NCBI GenBank assembly: GCA_030603365.1
Contig: JAUVXV010000016.1
Location: 26,274 to 90,273, forward strand
Direction: 5' to 3'
DNA: 64,000 bases
From: Candidatus Heimdallarchaeota archaeon
GTDB taxonomy: Archaea > Asgardarchaeota > Heimdallarchaeia > Heimdallarchaeales > Heimdallarchaeaceae
Within the stretch, counting starts at the first letter, position 1. Each line of letters begins with the position of its first letter. Shown one piece after another: positions 8,375 through 64,000 of this stretch. Under the pieces are notes generated by a model. That model ran no database searches, was not told the DNA's origin, and worked only from the letters and a program-made list of their open reading frames with translations. Made by a program: the position numbers and the translations under genes.

Positions 8375-8684
8375 CCTATTATCTTATGTAAACTATATCT
8401 TAAAAACAGCACAATTTTTTCGAGTAGATTTTTGTTGTGTTAGTTAACAATATAAAAACACTATCTATAGAATCAAACTCTAAGGCTTAGCAATTCGCAG
8501 TAATCTTCTAATCTTTTTCATGAAAAATGAAAAATTAATACTTTCAGTGAACAGCCCCTTCTTTCTATTCTAGTCTACTGAAATTAGTGATAAGAATATT
8601 AGATTTTATCTGTACTCAGTATTAGCTCTGTTTGAATCTTAAAAATTCTCAATAGTTTCGATATGGTTATTTTTATTGAGTAAA

Positions 8685-9716
8685 ATGGAAAGTTGCTTGT
8701 GTGATGAATGTGGATCTCGAATAGTTGAAGAGAACGGGGAGAATGTATGTCAAAAATGTGGTCTTGTACACGATCCTATACTTGAATCTTCATCTTTTCA
8801 ATTAGGTTCAGTGAAAAATGGTGTATCTAGAAAAAACCAACAATATACTTCAATAAATAACAATTTAACTGTTGTAAGTTCTTTAGGTTCATCTATTGGT
8901 TCAGTAGAAGAATACATGTTTAGGGATGCAAATGGGTCTCTTTTAGATGAAACTATGCAATATAAGTTTCGAAAATTTAAAACTTACTATCACATCCCTG
9001 GAGCTATTAAAGGAAAGGAAACTGATTTTAGAACTTTAAAGATTTTAAATGAGGTCTTTTCACGACTTCAAGTTCCAAACAAAATACGAGAAAGGACCCT
9101 CTTTCTCTATCATCAATATAAATCGGAACACAAAAAGAAGATAACAAATCATGTTCTGCTTTCAGCTATGGCACTATTTCTAAGCATACGTGAATCAGGG
9201 ACAAATTGTCCTCTTACACTAAAGGAAATAGTAAATACCTACAGGGAGCTAGGTCATAGAGTTCTTGGAAAAAATCTACTAAGTCTTATGCAAGATCTGA
9301 ATATCAAACCAACTTCAAGTGGGGTTAGAAGAAGTGAAGAATATGTTTTCAGAATATGTTCTCTGATTTGCCGTTGTCCAATAATAAAGGAAAGAATTGA
9401 GAAGAAGTATTCCATAGATGTTTATGTTTATGAGAAAATGCTTCAACTTCTTTGTTTGAAGATACTTGAGCGTATACCATATCCTGATCGCGGAGGAAGA
9501 AGACCCTATCCTCTTTCAGCAGCTTCTGCTTATGTAGCTGATAAGCTCTTATCAAGAAAGATAAAACACTCTTCTGCTCTAACACAAAAACTTGTAGCTC
9601 AATCAGCAAACGTTGCAGAGTTTACAATAAGAGATCATGCTGAGTTTATGTTTTCTTATGATTATGAGAATATTATTAATGATATCAGTGAAAGATTATC
9701 TTCAAGTTTTGTTTAG
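8685..9716 (+). CDS. Divergent TFB/TFIIB-family paralog
   Basis: N-terminal Zn ribbon CDEC...CQKC, two cyclin-fold repeats, C-terminal TQKLVAQSANVAEFTIR HTH. Lacks the canonical B-reader EWR motif. Confidence 0.8.
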   Translation: MESCLCDECGSRIVEENGENVCQKCGLVHDPILESSSFQLGSVKNGVSRKNQQYTSINNNLTVVSSLGSSIGSVEEYMFRDANGSLLDETMQYKFRKFKTYYHIPGAIKGKETDFRTLKILNEVFSRLQVPNKIRERTLFLYHQYKSEHKKKITNHVLLSAMALFLSIRESGTNCPLTLKEIVNTYRELGHRVLGKNLLSLMQDLNIKPTSSGVRRSEEYVFRICSLICRCPIIKERIEKKYSIDVYVYEKMLQLLCLKILERIPYPDRGGRRPYPLSAASAYVADKLLSRKIKHSSALTQKLVAQSANVAEFTIRDHAEFMFSYDYENIINDISERLSSSFV

Positions 9717-54923: not shown

Positions 54924-57629
54924 ATGACAGAAAAATATGTTTACAAGTTTTTTAACAAAGAAATCTGTGAAGGGAGCGCAGATATGAAAAATTTACTTGG
55001 TGGAAAAGGAGCTAATTTAGCAGAAATGACTTCATTAGGTTTACCTGTACCACCCGGTTTTGTAGTTTCTACTCAAGCCTGTCTTCATTTTTTGGCAAAC
55101 AATGAAGCTTATCCTGCAGGTTTAGAAGAAGCAATTGATGAAGCATTAGTAGCTTTGGAAAACCACATGGGAAAGAAATTAGGTGATAACGAAGACCCAT
55201 TGCTTGTATCTGTTCGTTCAGGAGCAAGAATTTCAATGCCAGGTATGATGGATACAGTATTAAATCTAGGTTTGAATGATGTATCAGTTGAGGGATTAGC
55301 TAATATTTCAAACGATTTAAGATTTGCATATGACTCTTATAGACGTTTCATGTACATGTATGCTGATGTGGTAAAAGGTGTTAGTAAAGAATATTTTGAG
55401 AAAGAATTGGAGAAACTCAAGCATGAGTTGGGTATAGAAAATGATACAGACATACCAGCTAGTGAACTTAAGAACTTAATTCAAAAATACAAAGTAATCT
55501 ACAAAGAACATCTAGGAGAAGATTTTCCTCAAGATTCAAGGAAACAATTAGATGATGCTATACGAGCTGTTTTCAGAAGTTGGAATACAAGGAGGGCAAT
55601 TGATTATAGAAATCATCAAGGTATTCCGCATGATTTAGGGACTGCCGTTAATGTTATGACAATGATTTATGGTAATCTTGGTGAAACTTCAGCAACAGGA
55701 GTAGCATTTACACGTAATCCATCTGACGGTGAAAAGAAATTGTATGGAGAATATTTAGTAAATGCACAAGGAGAAGATGTTGTTGCAGGGATTCGTACTC
55801 CCATTCCTATTGAAGAGCTTAAAATTGCAATGCCAGAATCATATAATCAACTTTTAGAGATTTCTGAATTGCTAGAGGAAAGATATCGAGATATGCAAGA
55901 TATGGAATTTACAATTCAACAAGGTAAACTCTACATGCTTCAGACAAGAAATGGAAAAAGAACTGGTATTGCAGCTAGTCAGATAGCATATGATTTGGTA
56001 AACGAAGGTCGAATATCTAAGGAAGAAGCAATTTTGAGGATAAGCCCAAGTGATGTTGAAAATGCTCTATTCCCATCAGTAGATTGGGGAAAAATTGATC
56101 CAAATGCTCCAGTTAAACAAATCAAAGAGAGTATAGCAAATCAGTACCTGGGTTCAGGTTTAGCAGCAGGAGCTGCAGCTGCTACAGGGTTAGCTATTTT
56201 TGATGCTGACAGAGCAAAAGAAATAGCTGACAAGCATCAAGATGTGATTTTGGTAAGAGTTGAGACGAATCCATCTGACTTTCATGGCATGGTAGCAGCA
56301 AATGGGATATTGACAATGAAAGGGGGTCTGACATCGCACGCCGCAATTGTAGCTAGACAAATAGGAAAAGCTTGCATTGTAGGTAGTGAACGTGGTAACG
56401 TAGAAATTGATGAAGAAAATAGAGAACTTCGTGGAAATAGTATTACTATTAAAGAAGGTGATTGGATTACAATCGATGGTACCGATGGTTCAATCTATCG
56501 AGGAGAACTTCCAACCACACCTGCTGAATTACCAACAGAAATGACAAAAATCCTTGAATGGGCAGATGAATTTGCAAAATTGCGAGTGATAGCAAACGCC
56601 GATAAACCAGATCAATTCAGAACTGCAATAAATTTTGGAGCACAAGGGATTGGGTTAACAAGGACTGAACATATGTTTTTTGATAATCTAGACATTGTTC
56701 AAGAGATGATACTAGCTCGTACAGAAGCTGAACGACAAATAGCCGTTGACAAACTTGAACCTTTACAACAAAAAGATTTCGAAGGATTATTTGAAGCAGC
56801 AGAAGGTAAACCAATTACTATACGTTTAATTGATCCACCATTGCATGAATTTTTACCAAGCGAAGTTGAGCTATTGAAAGAAATTTATGAAGCTCGTCTG
56901 GAAGGTAAAACAGAGGTGGAACTAAAAGAACAATATGAACTACTTGAGCAGGTTAAGTTGATAAAAGAGCAAAATCCTATGTTAGGTTTAAGAGGATGTA
57001 GATTAGGCATTACTATGCCAATGGTTACCGAAATGCAGAGTAAAGCAATTTTTAGAGCAGCTGCTAAAATCAAGAAAACTGGAAAAGAAATAATGCCAAA
57101 AGTAATGGTGCCACTAGTAGGCTTTGCAACAGAATTCCATAATCAACGTAAAATTATTGATGCTATGGCTAAAAAGATAATGGAAGAAGAGTGTATTGAG
57201 TTTTCATACAAAGTAGGTACAATGATTGAAGTTCCTCGTGCAGCCCTAACAACAGCTGAAATAGCTGAAGGAGAGAAAGGTGTGGAATTTATCTCATTCG
57301 GAACAAATGATTTACACCAAATGACACTAGGATTCAGCAGAGATGATGCAGGAACGTTTATAGATATATATATGCAAGAAAATATTATAGAAGCAGACCC
57401 ATTTGTAACAATAGACCAAACAGGTGTTGGACGCTTAATGGAGATGTGTGTGAAGGAAGGAAGAGAAACGAATCCAAAGTTGGAGTGCTCTGTGTGTGGT
57501 GAACATGGTGGGGATCCCAAATCTATTGATTTTTGCCACAGAATTGGTCTTGATTTCGTTTCTTGTAGCCCTTACCGTATCCCTATAGCTAGATTAGCAG
57601 CAGGTCATGCAGCTTTAAAGAATAAATGA
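54924..57629 (+). CDS. ppdK: Pyruvate, phosphate dikinase
   Basis: GGKGANL, SVRSGA..SMPGMMDT, phospho-His GGLTSHAA, RTEHMF and CGEHGG motifs. Confidence 0.98.
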   Translation: MTEKYVYKFFNKEICEGSADMKNLLGGKGANLAEMTSLGLPVPPGFVVSTQACLHFLANNEAYPAGLEEAIDEALVALENHMGKKLGDNEDPLLVSVRSGARISMPGMMDTVLNLGLNDVSVEGLANISNDLRFAYDSYRRFMYMYADVVKGVSKEYFEKELEKLKHELGIENDTDIPASELKNLIQKYKVIYKEHLGEDFPQDSRKQLDDAIRAVFRSWNTRRAIDYRNHQGIPHDLGTAVNVMTMIYGNLGETSATGVAFTRNPSDGEKKLYGEYLVNAQGEDVVAGIRTPIPIEELKIAMPESYNQLLEISELLEERYRDMQDMEFTIQQGKLYMLQTRNGKRTGIAASQIAYDLVNEGRISKEEAILRISPSDVENALFPSVDWGKIDPNAPVKQIKESIANQYLGSGLAAGAAAATGLAIFDADRAKEIADKHQDVILVRVETNPSDFHGMVAANGILTMKGGLTSHAAIVARQIGKACIVGSERGNVEIDEENRELRGNSITIKEGDWITIDGTDGSIYRGELPTTPAELPTEMTKILEWADEFAKLRVIANADKPDQFRTAINFGAQGIGLTRTEHMFFDNLDIVQEMILARTEAERQIAVDKLEPLQQKDFEGLFEAAEGKPITIRLIDPPLHEFLPSEVELLKEIYEARLEGKTEVELKEQYELLEQVKLIKEQNPMLGLRGCRLGITMPMVTEMQSKAIFRAAAKIKKTGKEIMPKVMVPLVGFATEFHNQRKIIDAMAKKIMEEECIEFSYKVGTMIEVPRAALTTAEIAEGEKGVEFISFGTNDLHQMTLGFSRDDAGTFIDIYMQENIIEADPFVTIDQTGVGRLMEMCVKEGRETNPKLECSVCGEHGGDPKSIDFCHRIGLDFVSCSPYRIPIARLAAGHAALKNK

Positions 57630-57649: not shown

Positions 57650-60600
57650 TTACCTTTTTTTATCAATCAACAGATTAATTTCATCTTCCCATTCTTTGTG
57701 AGGAGTAGTTAATTTTTTGTTAGAAAGAATTTTAATGATATTGTTAATCGATTCTTTTGCAATTCTTCTCATGTAAGGATTGGTATTAGGAAAATAGAAT
57801 AATGCTTCTTCATGTGTTGAAATCCATTCACCTTTAGAATAATTTAAAGCATTTAAACCCAATTTACCTTGTTCAGAATATGTTCTAGTTCTTTGTGAAT
57901 CACGGCCCATATAATAAGTAATTTCTACTTTTTCCTCTTTCAATAATCTAATATCCTCAATCACAAGTTCCCAATCATTATCTTTGAGAGCCTTAGGAAA
58001 AGTCAGATATTTACAATTGTTGTTTTCTATCATAGTTTGAATTGTACCAATTACAGCATCAGTAAATTCACACCACAGTGAATAATAATCAAGAATAAGA
58101 TAAATATACATCCTCATTAACACAATAGGATTATCAAATCCAATTCTAGGATTAAATTTCATTTGTGAATTATCTTTGAGTTTTTCCAGAATTGATGAAG
58201 AGTTTGGATCACTACCAAAAACCCTATACAATTTAGCTCTCCAGTATTGTCTAGCGAGATTTGCCCCTTTTCCATCTGATTCTTTACCTCCCAAAAATCG
58301 AATGTTTAACCTATTAGCATCTTTCTCATATTTGATAGGAAAATTTCCAAGCATTTCTTTTTTTAAGTGAGGATACTTCCTAATAACATCATTAATGTTA
58401 ATGTAGACATTTATAGGTGGCATTTCATTTTCAGAGTTTATTGGTTGACCGCCTGTTGGGGGTGAAATAGGATATGTAATAAGTTCATTTTTAAGATTGA
58501 TGTGATTGCTATTGTCATCCAACAAAACCACTAGTCTTTTTCCTGAACCTTTGTTGAATAATCCTTGAGGGAGCCTATGGGGTTTATTCGCTTTCTGTAA
58601 TATTAGAGTAGTTGCGATAAGAGAATATCTTGAGATATTTTCATCATCCTTAGAAATTGTTTCTATAAGTTTATCAAAGATTTCAGCTTTGTTTTTAAAT
58701 TTCACAACATCCAAAAGTATTGTGTCCCCATTAAAACCTAGCATGTTATCATATAGCTTTTTGAGAGAACCAGAGAGTTTAATATTCTTTCTAACTGCAA
58801 AATTGTCTAAGGCTTCTTGAAATGGTAAATACCAGTAATGTATTTCTGTATAAGGAATTACGGAATATAATTTTTGGATTTTCGATAACCAGTTTGTATA
58901 TTTGTTAATGTTCTCAGCAGCAATTTCAACGTAGGATTGAATCGTATTATTCTTAAATGCCTTGAAATCCTCAAATTGTTTAACCAATTGTTTGAATAGA
59001 GTATTCAAAATTTCATTGTATTTCATGACGATGATTTTCTCATGGTTAGAAGCGATTTTAGTTATTTCTCGTTCATTTACCTCCATCAAAACATTGTCAA
59101 CTAAAGATTGTAGATTTTGATAGACAAGTCTAACATTTTGATAATTCAAATTCTCTTTATCTATCATCAATTTGTCAAGAATTTCAGAAGTAAAACCTTT
59201 GATCGATATCATTCCTTCCTCAACACAAAGTTTGAAACTATCTGAATGTATTGGAACTTCAATCAGCTTTTTTTTACTATTGCTAATTTTGAGATTTAGA
59301 ACCCTTACAACATTGTTAGAATCATCTAATGTTGCACTATTTTGCATTAAGGCAAGTAGTCTATGATAGTTCATAGTTCCATTGAATATAGCATTTACAT
59401 AACTTAGAGGTTTTCCTTTTTCTAAGAGTGTTTCTTTAACTAAACTATGCATAGTTCCATCCGATTTCATTTTTCGGACAAAATCGTTACCCAATATATT
59501 TAAGGTGAAAAGAACTCGCTCACTTAAACTATTTGCTATTCTTAATGCTAGTACTGAATCATTATTTGGTAGATATTTGGCGAGATATATTTGAAATTTA
59601 ACTCCATAACATCCCTTAACGTATTCTAACATTTTCTTATCCAAATCTTTGATATGCAAATTTCTGTTCAAATTGTAGATAGCGTTTTGTAATTTCGATT
59701 CTACAACAATAAACTCTAAACCTCCCCCCGTATCTGCTAGAATGAAATCATCAAACGAATGTTTGAATTTTTGCATGGAATTAGGTGCAATATATATTTT
59801 AGATTTACTAGAATGATGGGAAAGTCTTCTCAACGAATCTCTGTCTCTGTTGATTTTACACCAAGCTTCCATAAATGTTTCTCCCATATTTGTTGAATCA
59901 AGCCCCAATATCGATTGTTCGTATCCAGATATAGCTGCTAAATACTTGGCATAGGTTCTTGCTTGTTTAGAGGTAAGTTCTGGGTATATCTGCGAATAGA
60001 ATGCTTCCATTAAATCTAGCTGTTCTCTCATAAAAATTGCAGTAATTTTCTCTTTATCTACATTTTTTGTATATAATTTCAAGTAATTTCCATACAAAGC
60101 GTTATTTCCTTCTAAATTTTCTATCTGTTTTATATTTGAAGAGAAAATTATCTTAGGTACAGTATTTGATATTGATGCAAGACATCTTACACCTGTAATT
60201 ATTCTGTTAATCTGTGATAATATTTCATCCCATTTGTCTTGGTTTTTTATGTTTCCCTTGTTATCAACAAGCTCATTCCAGTGTGCATTATCAAAACATG
60301 TTGCTCTAATCAATTCAATGATTTCTAATTTTAAAATCGCTGTCTTAGATGCTTCATCTCCTTCACCCATTATTTCCAGAGTATTTTCAATAAATTCAAG
60401 TGTAAAACTTTTTTCTAAATCTAGTTCTAGTGGTAAAATGGTTGTATTATCCAAGGTTTTGATTTCAGTTGTATACTTGTTGTCTAGTACAATGTTAGGT
60501 AATAAAAACGCGTCACTTTTTCTTTTCGCTACTATTCTATCTTGATTTTCTATATAATCATAATTAGTTGGATCCTTTTTACTATTCACATTATTATTGT

Positions 60601-63268
60601 TATATTTAGATATTAATTCTCCATGTTTTTTTTGTGAACGAATATCAAGATATATGCTACTCATTTCATTTGTTGGACTACGTTTATAGATTTGCTCCTC
60701 AATAAAGTATTCGCCCAAACCCGAATAATCATTGGAAATAGCTGTTAATAGGTTGTGTGCAAGTTCGAGCGAAATATGAAAACGTTCAGCAAAAAGATTT
60801 GCAGAGACTTGAATCTCTGGGGTGATCTTACTGATTATATAGTTGAGAAGTTTCAGTTTATACTCATCATATTGTTCTTGAGATAAATCTTCTTCAACGG
60901 TTTCATCCACGGTTAGATCAGGAATCTGTTCTTCTGTCTCAGACTTATTAGTCCTGAAGAAAGACTTGATAGTCTTTTCATGTTGTTTGTTTTCGGTTTT
61001 CCTTAAGAAATACAGAACTACGTTAATATTTAGAAATAGAAAAAGAAGAACTACAACTTTGAAGATTTCAAGTATATAACCATTACTTGCGAGATAGAGT
61101 AGAAGCAATACACTAGAGGGAATATAAAGAATTAAAATAACTATTCCCACTAATTGTGAAACCATAAACAAATCCTTATAGAACGTGGAGGTAGATATCA
61201 AGAATAGTGTAGAAAGAGTTACGAATCCTGAAACAAAAACGCATATTGTGAAAGAATAAAACCCCCATTTTCCCAAATCAGGATGGAATAAGTTTAAGCT
61301 GTAACTAGTGGCAATAGTAGCAAATTTATCTGCGATTCTACTAAGAGTTTCAACTTTCAAACAAAGATAACAAAGGGATAGTGGGAGTAACCACAGTCTG
61401 AAAAGAGATTCTTTTACTTTCAACCACCATTTCTTGGGAAAACGTGCGATTTTCTTAAATTTTGTTAGTTCTCTTTCTTCCTCTTCATTCTCTCGAGCAG
61501 TTCTTCCCTCTTCTTTTCTTTTCAGCAATCCTTGACTAAAAATACAACCGAAAAAAAGCAGGAGACAACCAAATTCCAAGTACATGATTGTTGATTTTAC
61601 AGGAGAAAGAGGTTTACTACCAAGATATTCTGGATTGTCAAATGGATTTGTACTACTTGTATCGTTCAAATATTCAGAAAGATTGTATTTGAGATCATTT
61701 AGTGTAATAGTAAGTCCATCACCATAAATAGATAAAATGACTGTAACCTCATACAAGTTGGAATAAAGGGTTTGTTGTTCATTGATATTAACCTGCTTTT
61801 CATTAGAGATTTGAGTATAAATTATAGTTAATAGACCAATTTTTACGAGAACATTTATTTGTCTAATTGCATAACCAAACTCACTAAATAAAGAAAATGA
61901 AAGAGAAACATTACAATGTAGATAATCTGGTATAACTTTACAGAAATCTTTGAAAGTGAGAATTAAAGGCTCAGATGAGGGGGTGGAACAACTCTTAGTC
62001 TCAACCAACATTCTTTCCAAGCTCCCCTGTTCATGGAGTTCTGGTAAAGGTTCTATGTTGACATAGCTAGAGTTTAGAAGGTAAAAAACTCCTTGTTCTT
62101 CCGCAAATCCTTGAATGCTTAGGATTAGAGAGTCATCTGAATGAGTTAAAGGGCATTTTGTGGTTATGGTTCGAGGAGAATTAGGTTGACCATATGCTGA
62201 TATTTCCCCTGAAATCAATGTTTTTGCCCCCAGCTTAATCTCATAACTTACTGAAGTTGCTACTGAACTTCGATAACCATAATCTACTGCAACCTCTAGA
62301 ATTTGTTCAGAGTAAGATATTACAGGTTTTAAAGGAGTTAAATCAAAGGAGTGATCAAATTCATTGCTCCCCCATGCATACCAACTATAGGTATTTTCAG
62401 GAAGAAAATCTTCAAAATCTATCCCTTTTCCGGAAAGTTGTATCTTAGAAAATTGTATCTCCCCCATACATATCTCAATCACAAAATCAATCGTTAAGAA
62501 GTTTATTCCAGAATCAATTGCTATTAAAAAGGATTCAGTTGTCAGTTGATCTTCTCTAAACTCTGAAGTACTCCTAAGCTGATCGTTAACATATATTTCG
62601 AAATGTTGTTTATAAGCTGTAAAATCATTGGTTTGAAAAGAAAGTGTAAGATTGACATTATCAAAATTTCCCGAATTGTTGAAAACAGTAGTAACAGTTC
62701 GAATCACGCTTGAGGATGAGCATCCCAGAAATCTTAACCAATTAGGAACAATAGGAAATAAGGAAATATTCTCATTTATTATTACTGGTTCTATTCTTTC
62801 CACTTTTGAATAACTGAAGATTCGTACCGAACCTGATTCATACCACAACGAAGTTTGAGCTTCAACAGTAATTATTAAAATCATTGTTCCACTAAAGCTT
62901 TCAGGATAGGAAAAGAGTTGCGTAAGATTATGTCCTAGATGATCTTGGAATAAACGTTCAATAACAAAGGTAACTTCAATTTCTCCAAAAATAAAACTAA
63001 TTCTTATACCTTCATTATTGGTTTTATCACCAGAAGTAGTGAAAAACAATGTTAAGCAATTAAAATTATCTAACTCAAGTTGAAACTGAAAAGATACTTG
63101 CTGTTTAGAGTAAGTAGAATTATAATCAACAATAATGTCTGGAAAGGAAAAAAAAGATGGGTTTTTCCGTTCAATATTTTCTGTATGAAATGAAGAACTT
63201 ATACAATTTAAGAAAAGTGAACCAATGAATATTAATGTCAGCGAAATCCCTAATCTGCTTTTTTTCAT
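57650..63268 (-). CDS. 1872-aa receptor-like membrane protein: ectodomain, about 5 TM, winged helix, large cytoplasmic region with PD-(D/E)xK motif
   Basis: Signal peptide, about 530 aa of beta-rich ectodomain, five hydrophobic segments, a wHTH-like segment, then MGETF...SFDDFILADTGGGLEFIVVESK. Confidence 0.65.
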   Translation of the reverse strand: MKKSRLGISLTLIFIGSLFLNCISSSFHTENIERKNPSFFSFPDIIVDYNSTYSKQQVSFQFQLELDNFNCLTLFFTTSGDKTNNEGIRISFIFGEIEVTFVIERLFQDHLGHNLTQLFSYPESFSGTMILIITVEAQTSLWYESGSVRIFSYSKVERIEPVIINENISLFPIVPNWLRFLGCSSSSVIRTVTTVFNNSGNFDNVNLTLSFQTNDFTAYKQHFEIYVNDQLRSTSEFREDQLTTESFLIAIDSGINFLTIDFVIEICMGEIQFSKIQLSGKGIDFEDFLPENTYSWYAWGSNEFDHSFDLTPLKPVISYSEQILEVAVDYGYRSSVATSVSYEIKLGAKTLISGEISAYGQPNSPRTITTKCPLTHSDDSLILSIQGFAEEQGVFYLLNSSYVNIEPLPELHEQGSLERMLVETKSCSTPSSEPLILTFKDFCKVIPDYLHCNVSLSFSLFSEFGYAIRQINVLVKIGLLTIIYTQISNEKQVNINEQQTLYSNLYEVTVILSIYGDGLTITLNDLKYNLSEYLNDTSSTNPFDNPEYLGSKPLSPVKSTIMYLEFGCLLLFFGCIFSQGLLKRKEEGRTARENEEEERELTKFKKIARFPKKWWLKVKESLFRLWLLPLSLCYLCLKVETLSRIADKFATIATSYSLNLFHPDLGKWGFYSFTICVFVSGFVTLSTLFLISTSTFYKDLFMVSQLVGIVILILYIPSSVLLLLYLASNGYILEIFKVVVLLFLFLNINVVLYFLRKTENKQHEKTIKSFFRTNKSETEEQIPDLTVDETVEEDLSQEQYDEYKLKLLNYIISKITPEIQVSANLFAERFHISLELAHNLLTAISNDYSGLGEYFIEEQIYKRSPTNEMSSIYLDIRSQKKHGELISKYNNNNVNSKKDPTNYDYIENQDRIVAKRKSDAFLLPNIVLDNKYTTEIKTLDNTTILPLELDLEKSFTLEFIENTLEIMGEGDEASKTAILKLEIIELIRATCFDNAHWNELVDNKGNIKNQDKWDEILSQINRIITGVRCLASISNTVPKIIFSSNIKQIENLEGNNALYGNYLKLYTKNVDKEKITAIFMREQLDLMEAFYSQIYPELTSKQARTYAKYLAAISGYEQSILGLDSTNMGETFMEAWCKINRDRDSLRRLSHHSSKSKIYIAPNSMQKFKHSFDDFILADTGGGLEFIVVESKLQNAIYNLNRNLHIKDLDKKMLEYVKGCYGVKFQIYLAKYLPNNDSVLALRIANSLSERVLFTLNILGNDFVRKMKSDGTMHSLVKETLLEKGKPLSYVNAIFNGTMNYHRLLALMQNSATLDDSNNVVRVLNLKISNSKKKLIEVPIHSDSFKLCVEEGMISIKGFTSEILDKLMIDKENLNYQNVRLVYQNLQSLVDNVLMEVNEREITKIASNHEKIIVMKYNEILNTLFKQLVKQFEDFKAFKNNTIQSYVEIAAENINKYTNWLSKIQKLYSVIPYTEIHYWYLPFQEALDNFAVRKNIKLSGSLKKLYDNMLGFNGDTILLDVVKFKNKAEIFDKLIETISKDDENISRYSLIATTLILQKANKPHRLPQGLFNKGSGKRLVVLLDDNSNHINLKNELITYPISPPTGGQPINSENEMPPINVYININDVIRKYPHLKKEMLGNFPIKYEKDANRLNIRFLGGKESDGKGANLARQYWRAKLYRVFGSDPNSSSILEKLKDNSQMKFNPRIGFDNPIVLMRMYIYLILDYYSLWCEFTDAVIGTIQTMIENNNCKYLTFPKALKDNDWELVIEDIRLLKEEKVEITYYMGRDSQRTRTYSEQGKLGLNALNYSKGEWISTHEEALFYFPNTNPYMRRIAKESINNIIKILSNKKLTTPHKEWEDEINLLIDKKR

Positions 63269-63501: not shown

Positions 63502-64000
63502 TTATGGCCAACTTGGGGGATGATCATCTGGGTCTGTTGGGTCGGTTGGTGGAACTCTGGGGGGATACTGTTCTTCATAGTCATCAAACGTATCGTCATC
63601 AGTATCAGCATCATTGGGTTTCGTTTGGTAAACATCTTTTTCACCTGCATCATCATAATCTCCATCATCATTAAGATCAAACCATCCATTGATTTCCTCT
63701 AAATTCGTCAATCCATCATTATCATCGTCATCATCAGCGTCTGAAGCATCTAAAGGATCAAGATTCCAGAAAATTTCATCCCCGTCATTGATGAAATCCC
63801 CATCAGTGTCTGAATTATTAGGATGGGTACCAATAAAACATTCATCTATGTTTCTTAGGCCATCATTATCTTCATCTAAAGCACCATTAGAGACATTGGG
63901 GTCGTAACCATAGAACACTTCCCATGCATCATCACAACCATCATTGTCAGTATCTGTGTCATTTGGGTCAGTACCATAAGTATTGACTTCCTCTCCATCA
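63502..64000 (-). CDS. C-terminal part of a calcium-binding repeat protein (bacterial TSP3-like DxDxDG repeats)
   Basis: The frame is open to the window edge (DGEEVNTYGTDPNDTDTDNDGCDDAWEV...). Tandem D-x-D-x-D-G...E...TDP repeats, Pro-rich C-terminus with no TM. Confidence 0.85.
   Translation of the reverse strand, partial: DGEEVNTYGTDPNDTDTDNDGCDDAWEVFYGYDPNVSNGALDEDNDGLRNIDECFIGTHPNNSDTDGDFINDGDEIFWNLDPLDASDADDDDDNDGLTNLEEINGWFDLNDDGDYDDAGEKDVYQTKPNDADTDDDTFDDYEEQYPPRVPPTDPTDPDDHPPSWP

Follow-up and report, generated by a model that had tools for sequence, protein, structure and literature searches.

A membrane module fused to a nuclease-type tail in a Heimdallarchaeaceae genome is probably the core of a cassette that homes into housekeeping gene ends

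The window analyzed here is a 64,000-nucleotide (nt) stretch of DNA from Candidatus Heimdallarchaeota archaeon (assembly GCA_030603365.1, contig JAUVXV010000016.1, positions 26,274 to 90,273 of the forward strand). Its subject is one gene, P0002, an 1872-amino-acid (aa) open reading frame (ORF) that runs as an intact single frame on the minus strand at 57650..63268 and joins an N-terminal membrane module, here called the chassis, to a nuclease-type tail. We conclude, with a probability of about 0.62, that this gene is the core of a mobile cassette of ∼9.7 kb that spreads by homing, and that the membrane module is its reusable chassis. Modular fusion, insertion into gene ends, replacement of those ends, displaced remnants, co-transfer, and patchiness are directly seen in the sequences compared; a homing-type, site-specific activity of the tail is what they suggest. 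Homing with end replacement is an already known kind of mobility. The original prediction, made from the window alone, had an extracellular cue firing a defense or toxin nuclease. That was not supported as the main reading: the tails track target genes instead of the receptor and are also found free-standing at those sites, two of them are LAGLIDADG enzymes, and the neighboring gene ppdK is a mosaic with its old end displaced. The element looks like a selfish, re-targetable "gene drive" in the membrane rather than an antiviral sensor.

The fusion gene converges on ppdK, its stop lying 20 bp from the ppdK stop with no gene in the gap. The 5′ half of ppdK (54924..56258, plus strand) is of the host's vertically inherited type; it is 77 to 88% identical to its closest congeners and groups with them in the 5′ tree. 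The 3′ half (56269..57629, plus strand) is a foreign replacement, 93 to 96% identical to L072 versus 66 to 73% to the congeners. L072 is a distant lineage that has the same family of nuclease (family B) as a free-standing gene, and its ppdK 5′ half and surE are only 64 to 77% identical to the window's. The breakpoint lies at 56258-56269 (27/236 versus 206/226 informative sites), and the 5′ and 3′ trees conflict with full support. Synonymous divergence (dS) from L072 is 0.18 in the ppdK 3′ half and 0.23 in the nuclease, against 1.95 in the ppdK 5′ half. Because the values for the 3′ half and the nuclease match, the nuclease and the ppdK end arrived together.

The end of the window shares an identical (100%) 124-nt overlap with contig C1. 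Co-oriented with the fusion gene is a gene for a secreted S8 protease with TSP3 repeats (library match; about 641 aa), whose 3′ end is at 63502..64000 on the minus strand. The rest of it is on C1. Next come genes for a membrane protein of 236 aa and for a TFIIB-like protein, the latter truncated, then ppdK codons 868-901, then a 316-aa gene. The displaced codons are of the congener type. In 16 of 20 relatives, which are cassette-free, the 316-aa gene comes directly after ppdK; in the remaining 4, a free-standing LAGLIDADG gene follows ppdK, of the type that L007 carries fused. The ∼9.7-kb cassette, consisting of the nuclease fusion, the S8/TSP3 protease, the 236-aa membrane protein, and the TFIIB-like gene, therefore lies inside the 3′ end of ppdK. 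From the start of the displaced old end on C1, the insertion or cut point is placed at 57522/57523 (57510..57535, plus strand), at about codon 866-867 and just past the conserved CGExGGDP codons. At its far end, the cassette is joined to the ppdK remnant through a short stretch of microhomology to the chassis in a paralog's cassette. Elsewhere in the window, at 8676-9716, a 346-aa ORF is related to the cassette's TFIIB-like gene (26 to 48% in two stretches).

Chassis and tail meet at a 9-bp in-frame junction, GAAAATCAA (codons 907-909; 60542..60550, minus strand), at which P0002 diverges from its paralog in L001, from the free-standing P0026/L072, and from L034/L056. The 9-mer GAAAATCAA has 251 copies in the host genome, and the linkers are A-rich; the shared junction is either a hot spot or an A-rich microhomology used repeatedly. 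The original prediction had allowed for a chimeric fusion of two genes. The gene is a chimera, but an evolutionary one and not evidently an assembly error. An assembly chimera is unlikely in that the chassis is 18% different from the paralog's, the two share no more than 9 bp at the junction, and other assemblies also have B-type fusions, although a metagenome scan found no second copy of the fusion. Judged by these comparisons, the gene is a natural chimera, joined at the 9-bp junction, inside a mobile cassette.

The chassis (residues 1-909: a repeat ectodomain, five transmembrane [TM] segments, and a winged-helix-turn-helix [wHTH]-like segment) is found only in Heimdallarchaeaceae. Of the 31 family genomes, 29 have its N-terminal module, as against 0 of 52 other genomes searched from the same class. 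The same-genome paralog (2268 aa) is 75% identical to P0002 up to residue 909 and unrelated beyond it. The search for swapped C-terminal effectors that the original prediction had proposed gave seven or more tail groups, unrelated to one another and 400 to 1560 aa long, placed after the linker, five with D..(E/D)xK-type motifs and two of LAGLIDADG types (one Pfam confirmed, E 2e-19). All of the ∼25 fusions, of many tail types, join in frame past the wHTH-like segment and linker, and omega values of 0.15-0.29 show purifying selection on every module. The tail classes follow conserved target genes while the chassis clades change. In a quick tree of the ectodomains the tail classes were scattered, and P0002, the paralog, and the LAGLIDADG fusion L007 formed one clade with three different tails. 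The class-A motif of the paralog, G-x-D..(E/S)xK near residues 1178-1191, is conserved; a D..DxK near residue 1128-1151 was dropped as its motif because the spacing is not conserved.

The family-B tail of P0002 (aa 907-1872; 57650..60550, minus strand) is 88% identical over residues 907-1871 to the free-standing P0026, which has the same position, converging on ppdK; the first ∼100 residues of P0026 differ. Many members of the family are free-standing proteins of 900 to 1000 aa with a coiled coil at the start, to which those residues of P0026 have a weak match (E 0.002). Relatives are few: just 13 turned up in a profile search across 1.8 billion representatives, and genome searches added ∼20, nearly all within Heimdallarchaeaceae. 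Family B also forms the tip of two giant, secreted-looking surface proteins of 2979 aa (L082:1-8940, open) and 4628 aa (L092:2057-15943), and by this comparison other surface proteins capture such tails as well.

The motifs quoted in the original prediction are at residues 821, 851, 1127, 1170, and 1188. Its GE…D…ExK signature corresponds to a PD-(D/E)xK-type motif, E1130, D1173, E1190, and K1192 (59693..59890, minus strand), which is no chance pattern, being invariant or nearly so in homologues that are 15 to 30% identical. E1130 is kept in 25/25, F1172-D1173 in 27/27, E1190 in 26/27 (the single exception is Asp), and K1192 in 27/27. A first AlphaFold model, built on 12 sequences, rendered the motif region poorly, and its structure search was uninformative. 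In a second (pLDDT 75.7), helix 51-65 contains E1130, D1173 immediately precedes strand 100-105, and ExK immediately follows strand 110-115, with the adjoining loops at low confidence; so modeled, the motif residues would sit on a helix and the following hairpin, as in restriction-like nucleases. From motif and model, the tail likely works like a PD-(D/E)xK nuclease, of which superfamily it is a predicted member only. Comparisons by hhalign of the tail cores with Hjc and with each other were not significant (best, B versus C, E 0.02), and the tail had no NCBIfam and no PDB sequence match. Nor did the P0002 tail have a LAGLIDADG motif or Pfam match, whereas the tail of L007, which shares chassis and site with P0002, does. 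Reading its FDD motif as a reverse transcriptase was rejected for the wrong spacing and a variable second Asp.

The same pattern recurs at other genes, with tails both free and fused at one site. At ppdK, LAGLIDADG_2 is free in L096, L105, L106, and L113 and fused in L007 (Pfam E 1e-19 to 1e-21), and family B is free in L072 and fused in P0002. At glmS, a second LAGLIDADG-like type is free in L206-L210 and fused in L041, L045, L047, and L054. A family-B gene occupies fumB in 7 of 28 genomes, and the second LAGLIDADG type, free or fused, occupies glmS in 11 of 23. All seven fumB remnants begin at one point, and four match their own lineage's empty allele (91 to 96%); the replacement ends group together across lineages (86 to 90%). 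Other chassis cassettes are bracketed by displaced ends of ABCE1 (237 bp), aspS (114 bp), and, for the paralog, the atpD 5′ end, and a second example of each was found in other genomes. Sequence just beyond the 16S rRNA gene (26 to 103 bp) is duplicated around chassis cassettes, and free-standing B genes are bracketed by 36- to 97-bp copies of tRNA 3′ ends (tRNA-Met/Leu). In minimal elements the B gene is the sole gene between the duplicated ends. Several cassettes have a co-oriented secreted protease upstream. After most fusions no small co-oriented immunity gene was found, the place being taken by convergent housekeeping or RNA genes; the original prediction had already seen that none follows P0002.

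Individual loci at these targets deserve mention. In the P0002 genome itself, a free-standing 905-aa family-B nuclease gene (G000:C3:49636-52353; L090:5637-8354) interrupts the fumarate hydratase beta gene at its 3′ end; the displaced old end comes before the alpha gene, and a duplicate of the alpha 3′ end possibly lies downstream. The paralog's cassette (G000:C1:65635-81181; L001), ∼15 kb and bracketed by the atpD 5′ end, also has a kinase gene with two uncharacterized genes, which recall a possible defense operon. The class-B fusions of L037, L049, and L074 (e.g., L037:9422-15176) converge on the 16S 3′ end with a short flank duplicated, and in L037 the 16S and 23S rRNA genes have divergent orientations. 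Among relatives (L144-L173), scrambling affects the final ∼90 nt of glmS, with the nuclease present or absent, as if repeatedly converted, and the glmS 3′ ends were too scrambled to yield a clean replacement tract.

If the cassette homes, its cycle might run as follows. The cytoplasmic tail would be a large site-specific endonuclease that cuts a cassette-free ppdK near the conserved C-terminal active-site codons, and repair from a cassette-bearing chromosome would copy the cassette into the cut allele. Upstream sequence would be co-converted, and the displaced ppdK end would be the second homology arm. The recoded replacement end would escape cutting; if ppdK is the target and the copy that the cassette carries has been recoded, an immunity protein becomes superfluous, which would explain the missing gene. 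The chassis would pick up resident homing nucleases, joined in frame downstream of its linker, and with each one acquired the cassette would be re-targeted to a new housekeeping gene. What the chassis contributes is the least certain step: it may gate the nuclease, be a hitch-hiker, or be a domesticated sensor-effector. With the odds against it, the chassis could keep the nuclease at the membrane and couple cutting to cell contact or DNA entry, and the adjacent S8 protease might release or activate the tail by cleavage. A contact-gated gene drive of this kind is a tentative idea: on the inner side of the membrane, a receptor-like protein would hold an exchangeable homing endonuclease. It is similarly doubtful that a partner cell or incoming DNA triggers the release, after which the cassette-free allele of an essential gene is cut, and that swapping the tail together with the matching gene end re-programs the target.

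Several observations weigh against homing by the tail. Neither the second AlphaFold model, which matched nothing among solved or atlas structures, nor profile searches confirmed the PD-(D/E)xK fold that the original prediction had assigned, though the tail may still have it. The tail, at ∼950 aa, greatly exceeds known homing endonucleases in size, the paralog itself has Ser at the Glu position of its class-A motif, and a membrane-bound nuclease would somehow have to gain access to the chromosome. No displaced ppdK end was found in L072, where the contig is short, and none for LAGLIDADG at ppdK or at glmS; the ppdK gene may have been first cut either by family B or by a LAGLIDADG enzyme resident at the same site. 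The sharp fumB crossover and the tRNA 3′-end duplications would also fit site-specific recombination. The family-B tail could then be a new single-protein integrase or transposase that inserts a circle carrying a gene end (Campbell type). The host-type remnants are likewise traces that an integrase leaves, and the protein is big enough for more than a nuclease. We consider this quite improbable, since the foreign ppdK tract reaches 1.26 kb upstream of the duplication point, which requires homologous recombination, and since LAGLIDADG tails are interchangeable with family B on the same chassis and site. The Arg/His/Tyr set of tyrosine recombinases is not conserved in the alignment. The tail had no integrase family match and no RHRY pattern, although a very divergent recombinase may have been missed, and with all cassette genes accounted for there is no tyrosine or serine recombinase gene among them.

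The other two alternatives concern the chassis. It could be a true receptor whose captured nuclease kills the cell or its neighbor on an outside cue, by abortive infection or as a contact toxin, the homing traces recording only how the tail arrived. The RING-H2 and Zn-ribbon chassis variants indicate that the chassis can bear signaling outputs, the fused forms are intact and under purifying selection over dS >1.2, and the secreted proteases upstream would suit such a system. We nevertheless think it unlikely. Tails stay with target genes when chassis clades change, and whole chassis-plus-tail cassettes bracketed by target-end duplications must have moved as units after fusion; LAGLIDADG enzymes are site specific and poor general toxins; and PADLOC 2.0 profiles of described anti-phage components did not match the fusion protein, nor is there a small downstream immunity gene in most fusions. 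Alternatively, the nuclease homes alone and the membrane module is cargo, the fusion supplying a promoter and start; protease trimming would free the nuclease, and the ectodomain would have a separate role (adhesion, glycan binding) without control over cutting. This agrees with the homing part of our preferred explanation and differs solely in the role of the chassis. It draws on the free-standing forms at the same sites, on split or frameshifted versions (L053, L054, L065, and L074), on the ease with which a 9-bp microhomology can arise by chance in A-rich linkers, and on intron ORFs fused to upstream exons in fungi (PMC8393795). Yet the fusions are all in frame after the wHTH-like segment and linker, and that segment is kept only in nuclease fusions, which makes mere cargo rather improbable.

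The literature covered, which excluded most subscription journals, held no description of the protein architecture of P0002, as the original prediction had supposed, of the giant nuclease family B, or of a membrane chassis with interchangeable homing-type nucleases. The cyanobacterial I-Ssp6803I is a small, intron-encoded PD-(D/E)xK homing endonuclease with a tRNA-Met target. It shares with the present elements a restriction-like motif used for homing and a tRNA-Met gene target; no sequence similarity to the tail was detected. Tyrosine integrase islands, and Tn7 at glmS, likewise duplicate a target end and restore the gene, but none of the integrase or Tns genes were seen here. ToxR and CadC are one-component membrane regulators, and PA-TM-RING ligases have an ectodomain-TM-RING layout. 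The chassis resembles them in layout only (ectodomain-TM-wHTH or ectodomain-TM-RING): its order is the reverse of ToxR, it is multi-pass, and it has no sequence similarity to them.

Mitochondrial endonuclease ORFs accompanied by C-terminal gene duplication are found at Allomyces atp6 and Ophiostoma rps3. In fungal mitochondria, C-terminal duplications of cob and atp6 lie beside free-standing endonuclease ORFs (PMC6279837). There, as here, a replacement gene end is brought in and the original end is pushed downstream, with no need for an integrase or intron; the present elements differ in their mostly PD-(D/E)xK-type motifs, in targets that include tRNA genes, the 16S flank, and 5′ ends (atpD), and in a shared re-targetable membrane chassis. 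The Seg and MobE enzymes of T4-like phages (intronless homing) are similar in that a patchy nuclease gene sits beside a conserved gene and co-converts it, over up to 2 kb for free-standing T4 endonucleases (PMC2790892) compared with 1.26 kb here. Unlike them, the present element, known from sequence alone, is on an archaeal chromosome, with tails of 950 to 1500 aa, a membrane chassis plus cargo, and an old end that is displaced and kept. Polymorphic toxins (Zhang et al. 2012, cited in PMC6393860) also keep their N-terminal membrane or trafficking part constant and exchange the nuclease domains at the C terminus. Compared with that account of them, the tails here are predicted to be on the producer's cytoplasmic side, from which fusion or vesicles might still deliver them, lack an immunity gene or orphan toxin-immunity array, and are linked to chromosomal target genes. 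The Heimdallarchaeum aloposons and HeimM2, as described in PMC8813620, share the host family and giant genes at tRNA sites and differ in having a ParA-like ATPase and twins of 3000 to 6000 aa.

If the homing explanation is true, site-specific nucleases gain a large new family whose targets can be read (ppdK, fumB, tRNA-Met, the 16S flank, ABCE1, aspS, and atpD). Asgard archaea are close to the ancestor of eukaryotes; Heimdallarchaeaceae housekeeping genes would then be mosaics made by such elements, a caution for marker-gene phylogenies of the relatives of eukaryotes. Because homing needs two alleles in one cell, there would also be a testable handle on chromosomal DNA exchange in uncultured Asgard archaea. 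The range of chassis outputs, from homing nucleases to RING-H2 fingers, would link selfish DNA to the origin of receptor-type signaling proteins. The contact-gated version, which has the odds against it, would be a new kind of system.

The anatomy of P0002 bears out the original prediction of an ectodomain, a TM block, and a cytoplasmic nuclease-type tail in one polypeptide, although the whole protein had no match in Pfam, PADLOC, or PDB sequence searches. Hydropathy predicts a signal peptide or N-terminal anchor (aa 1-27; 63188..63268, minus strand), with a hydrophobic stretch at residues 5-27. The ectodomain (aa 28-550; 61619..63187, minus strand) consists of four beta-rich blocks of ∼125 aa, and the internal repetition claimed earlier was recovered by hhalign between block 2 (166-288) and block 4 (413-540; Probab 94.6, E 7e-8; controls <0.4); a fold search matched it to no named fold. 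Five TM segments (aa 559-758; 60995..61594, minus strand), at about 559-577, 621-639, 673-691, 706-724, and 735-753, agree with the number foreseen; the second is weak in P0002 and clear in relatives. In 10 relatives the fraction of Lys plus Arg was 0.22 past TM1, then 0.06, 0.11, and 0.09, and 0.23 past TM5. N-glycosylation sequons were enriched in the ectodomains (177 versus 124 expected) and not in the tails (153 versus 169). The number of TM segments in relatives is 5 or 7, so that odd parity is preserved. The positive-inside counts, the sequon distribution, this parity, and the RING-H2-tipped relatives together favor a cytoplasmic C terminus, as predicted from these sequences. The putative wHTH-like segment (aa 796-869; 60662..60883, minus strand), found by alignment, is helical, ∼75 aa long, and without a Pfam match; it is kept in nuclease-fused forms, missing from RING and Zn-ribbon forms, and followed by an Asn/Lys-rich linker.

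Chassis forms with other endings are short RING-H2 proteins, Zn-ribbon proteins, and an ectodomain-plus-one-TM form. Those of L048:4142-6859, L062:8266-10989, and L063:4855-7557 end in a Zn ribbon plus RING-H2 (Pfam zf-RING_2 E 1e-9), and on this match they are candidate multi-pass membrane E3 ligases of an Asgard archaeon. The RING/Zn-ribbon chassis genes at L060-L063 and L071 (e.g., L062:6133-8076) adjoin TnpB/Cas12f-like genes of ∼650 aa (Pfam TNB E 1e-4, IS607 TnpB E 0.014), some inside 68- to 106-bp direct repeats, which may represent a third kind of mobile nuclease beside the chassis. The ectodomain-plus-one-TM form, 613 aa (G000:C15:89116-90957; L002:6117-7958), is present in most family genomes and is possibly the housekeeping ancestor of the chassis. 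Among the loci compared for upstream genes (L042, L045, L047, L050, L053, L054, L064, and L069), a divergent gene for a secreted beta-helix (NosD-like) protein usually lies upstream in the 7-TM chassis subfamily, and S8 protease or TSP3 genes lie there in the 5-TM subfamily.
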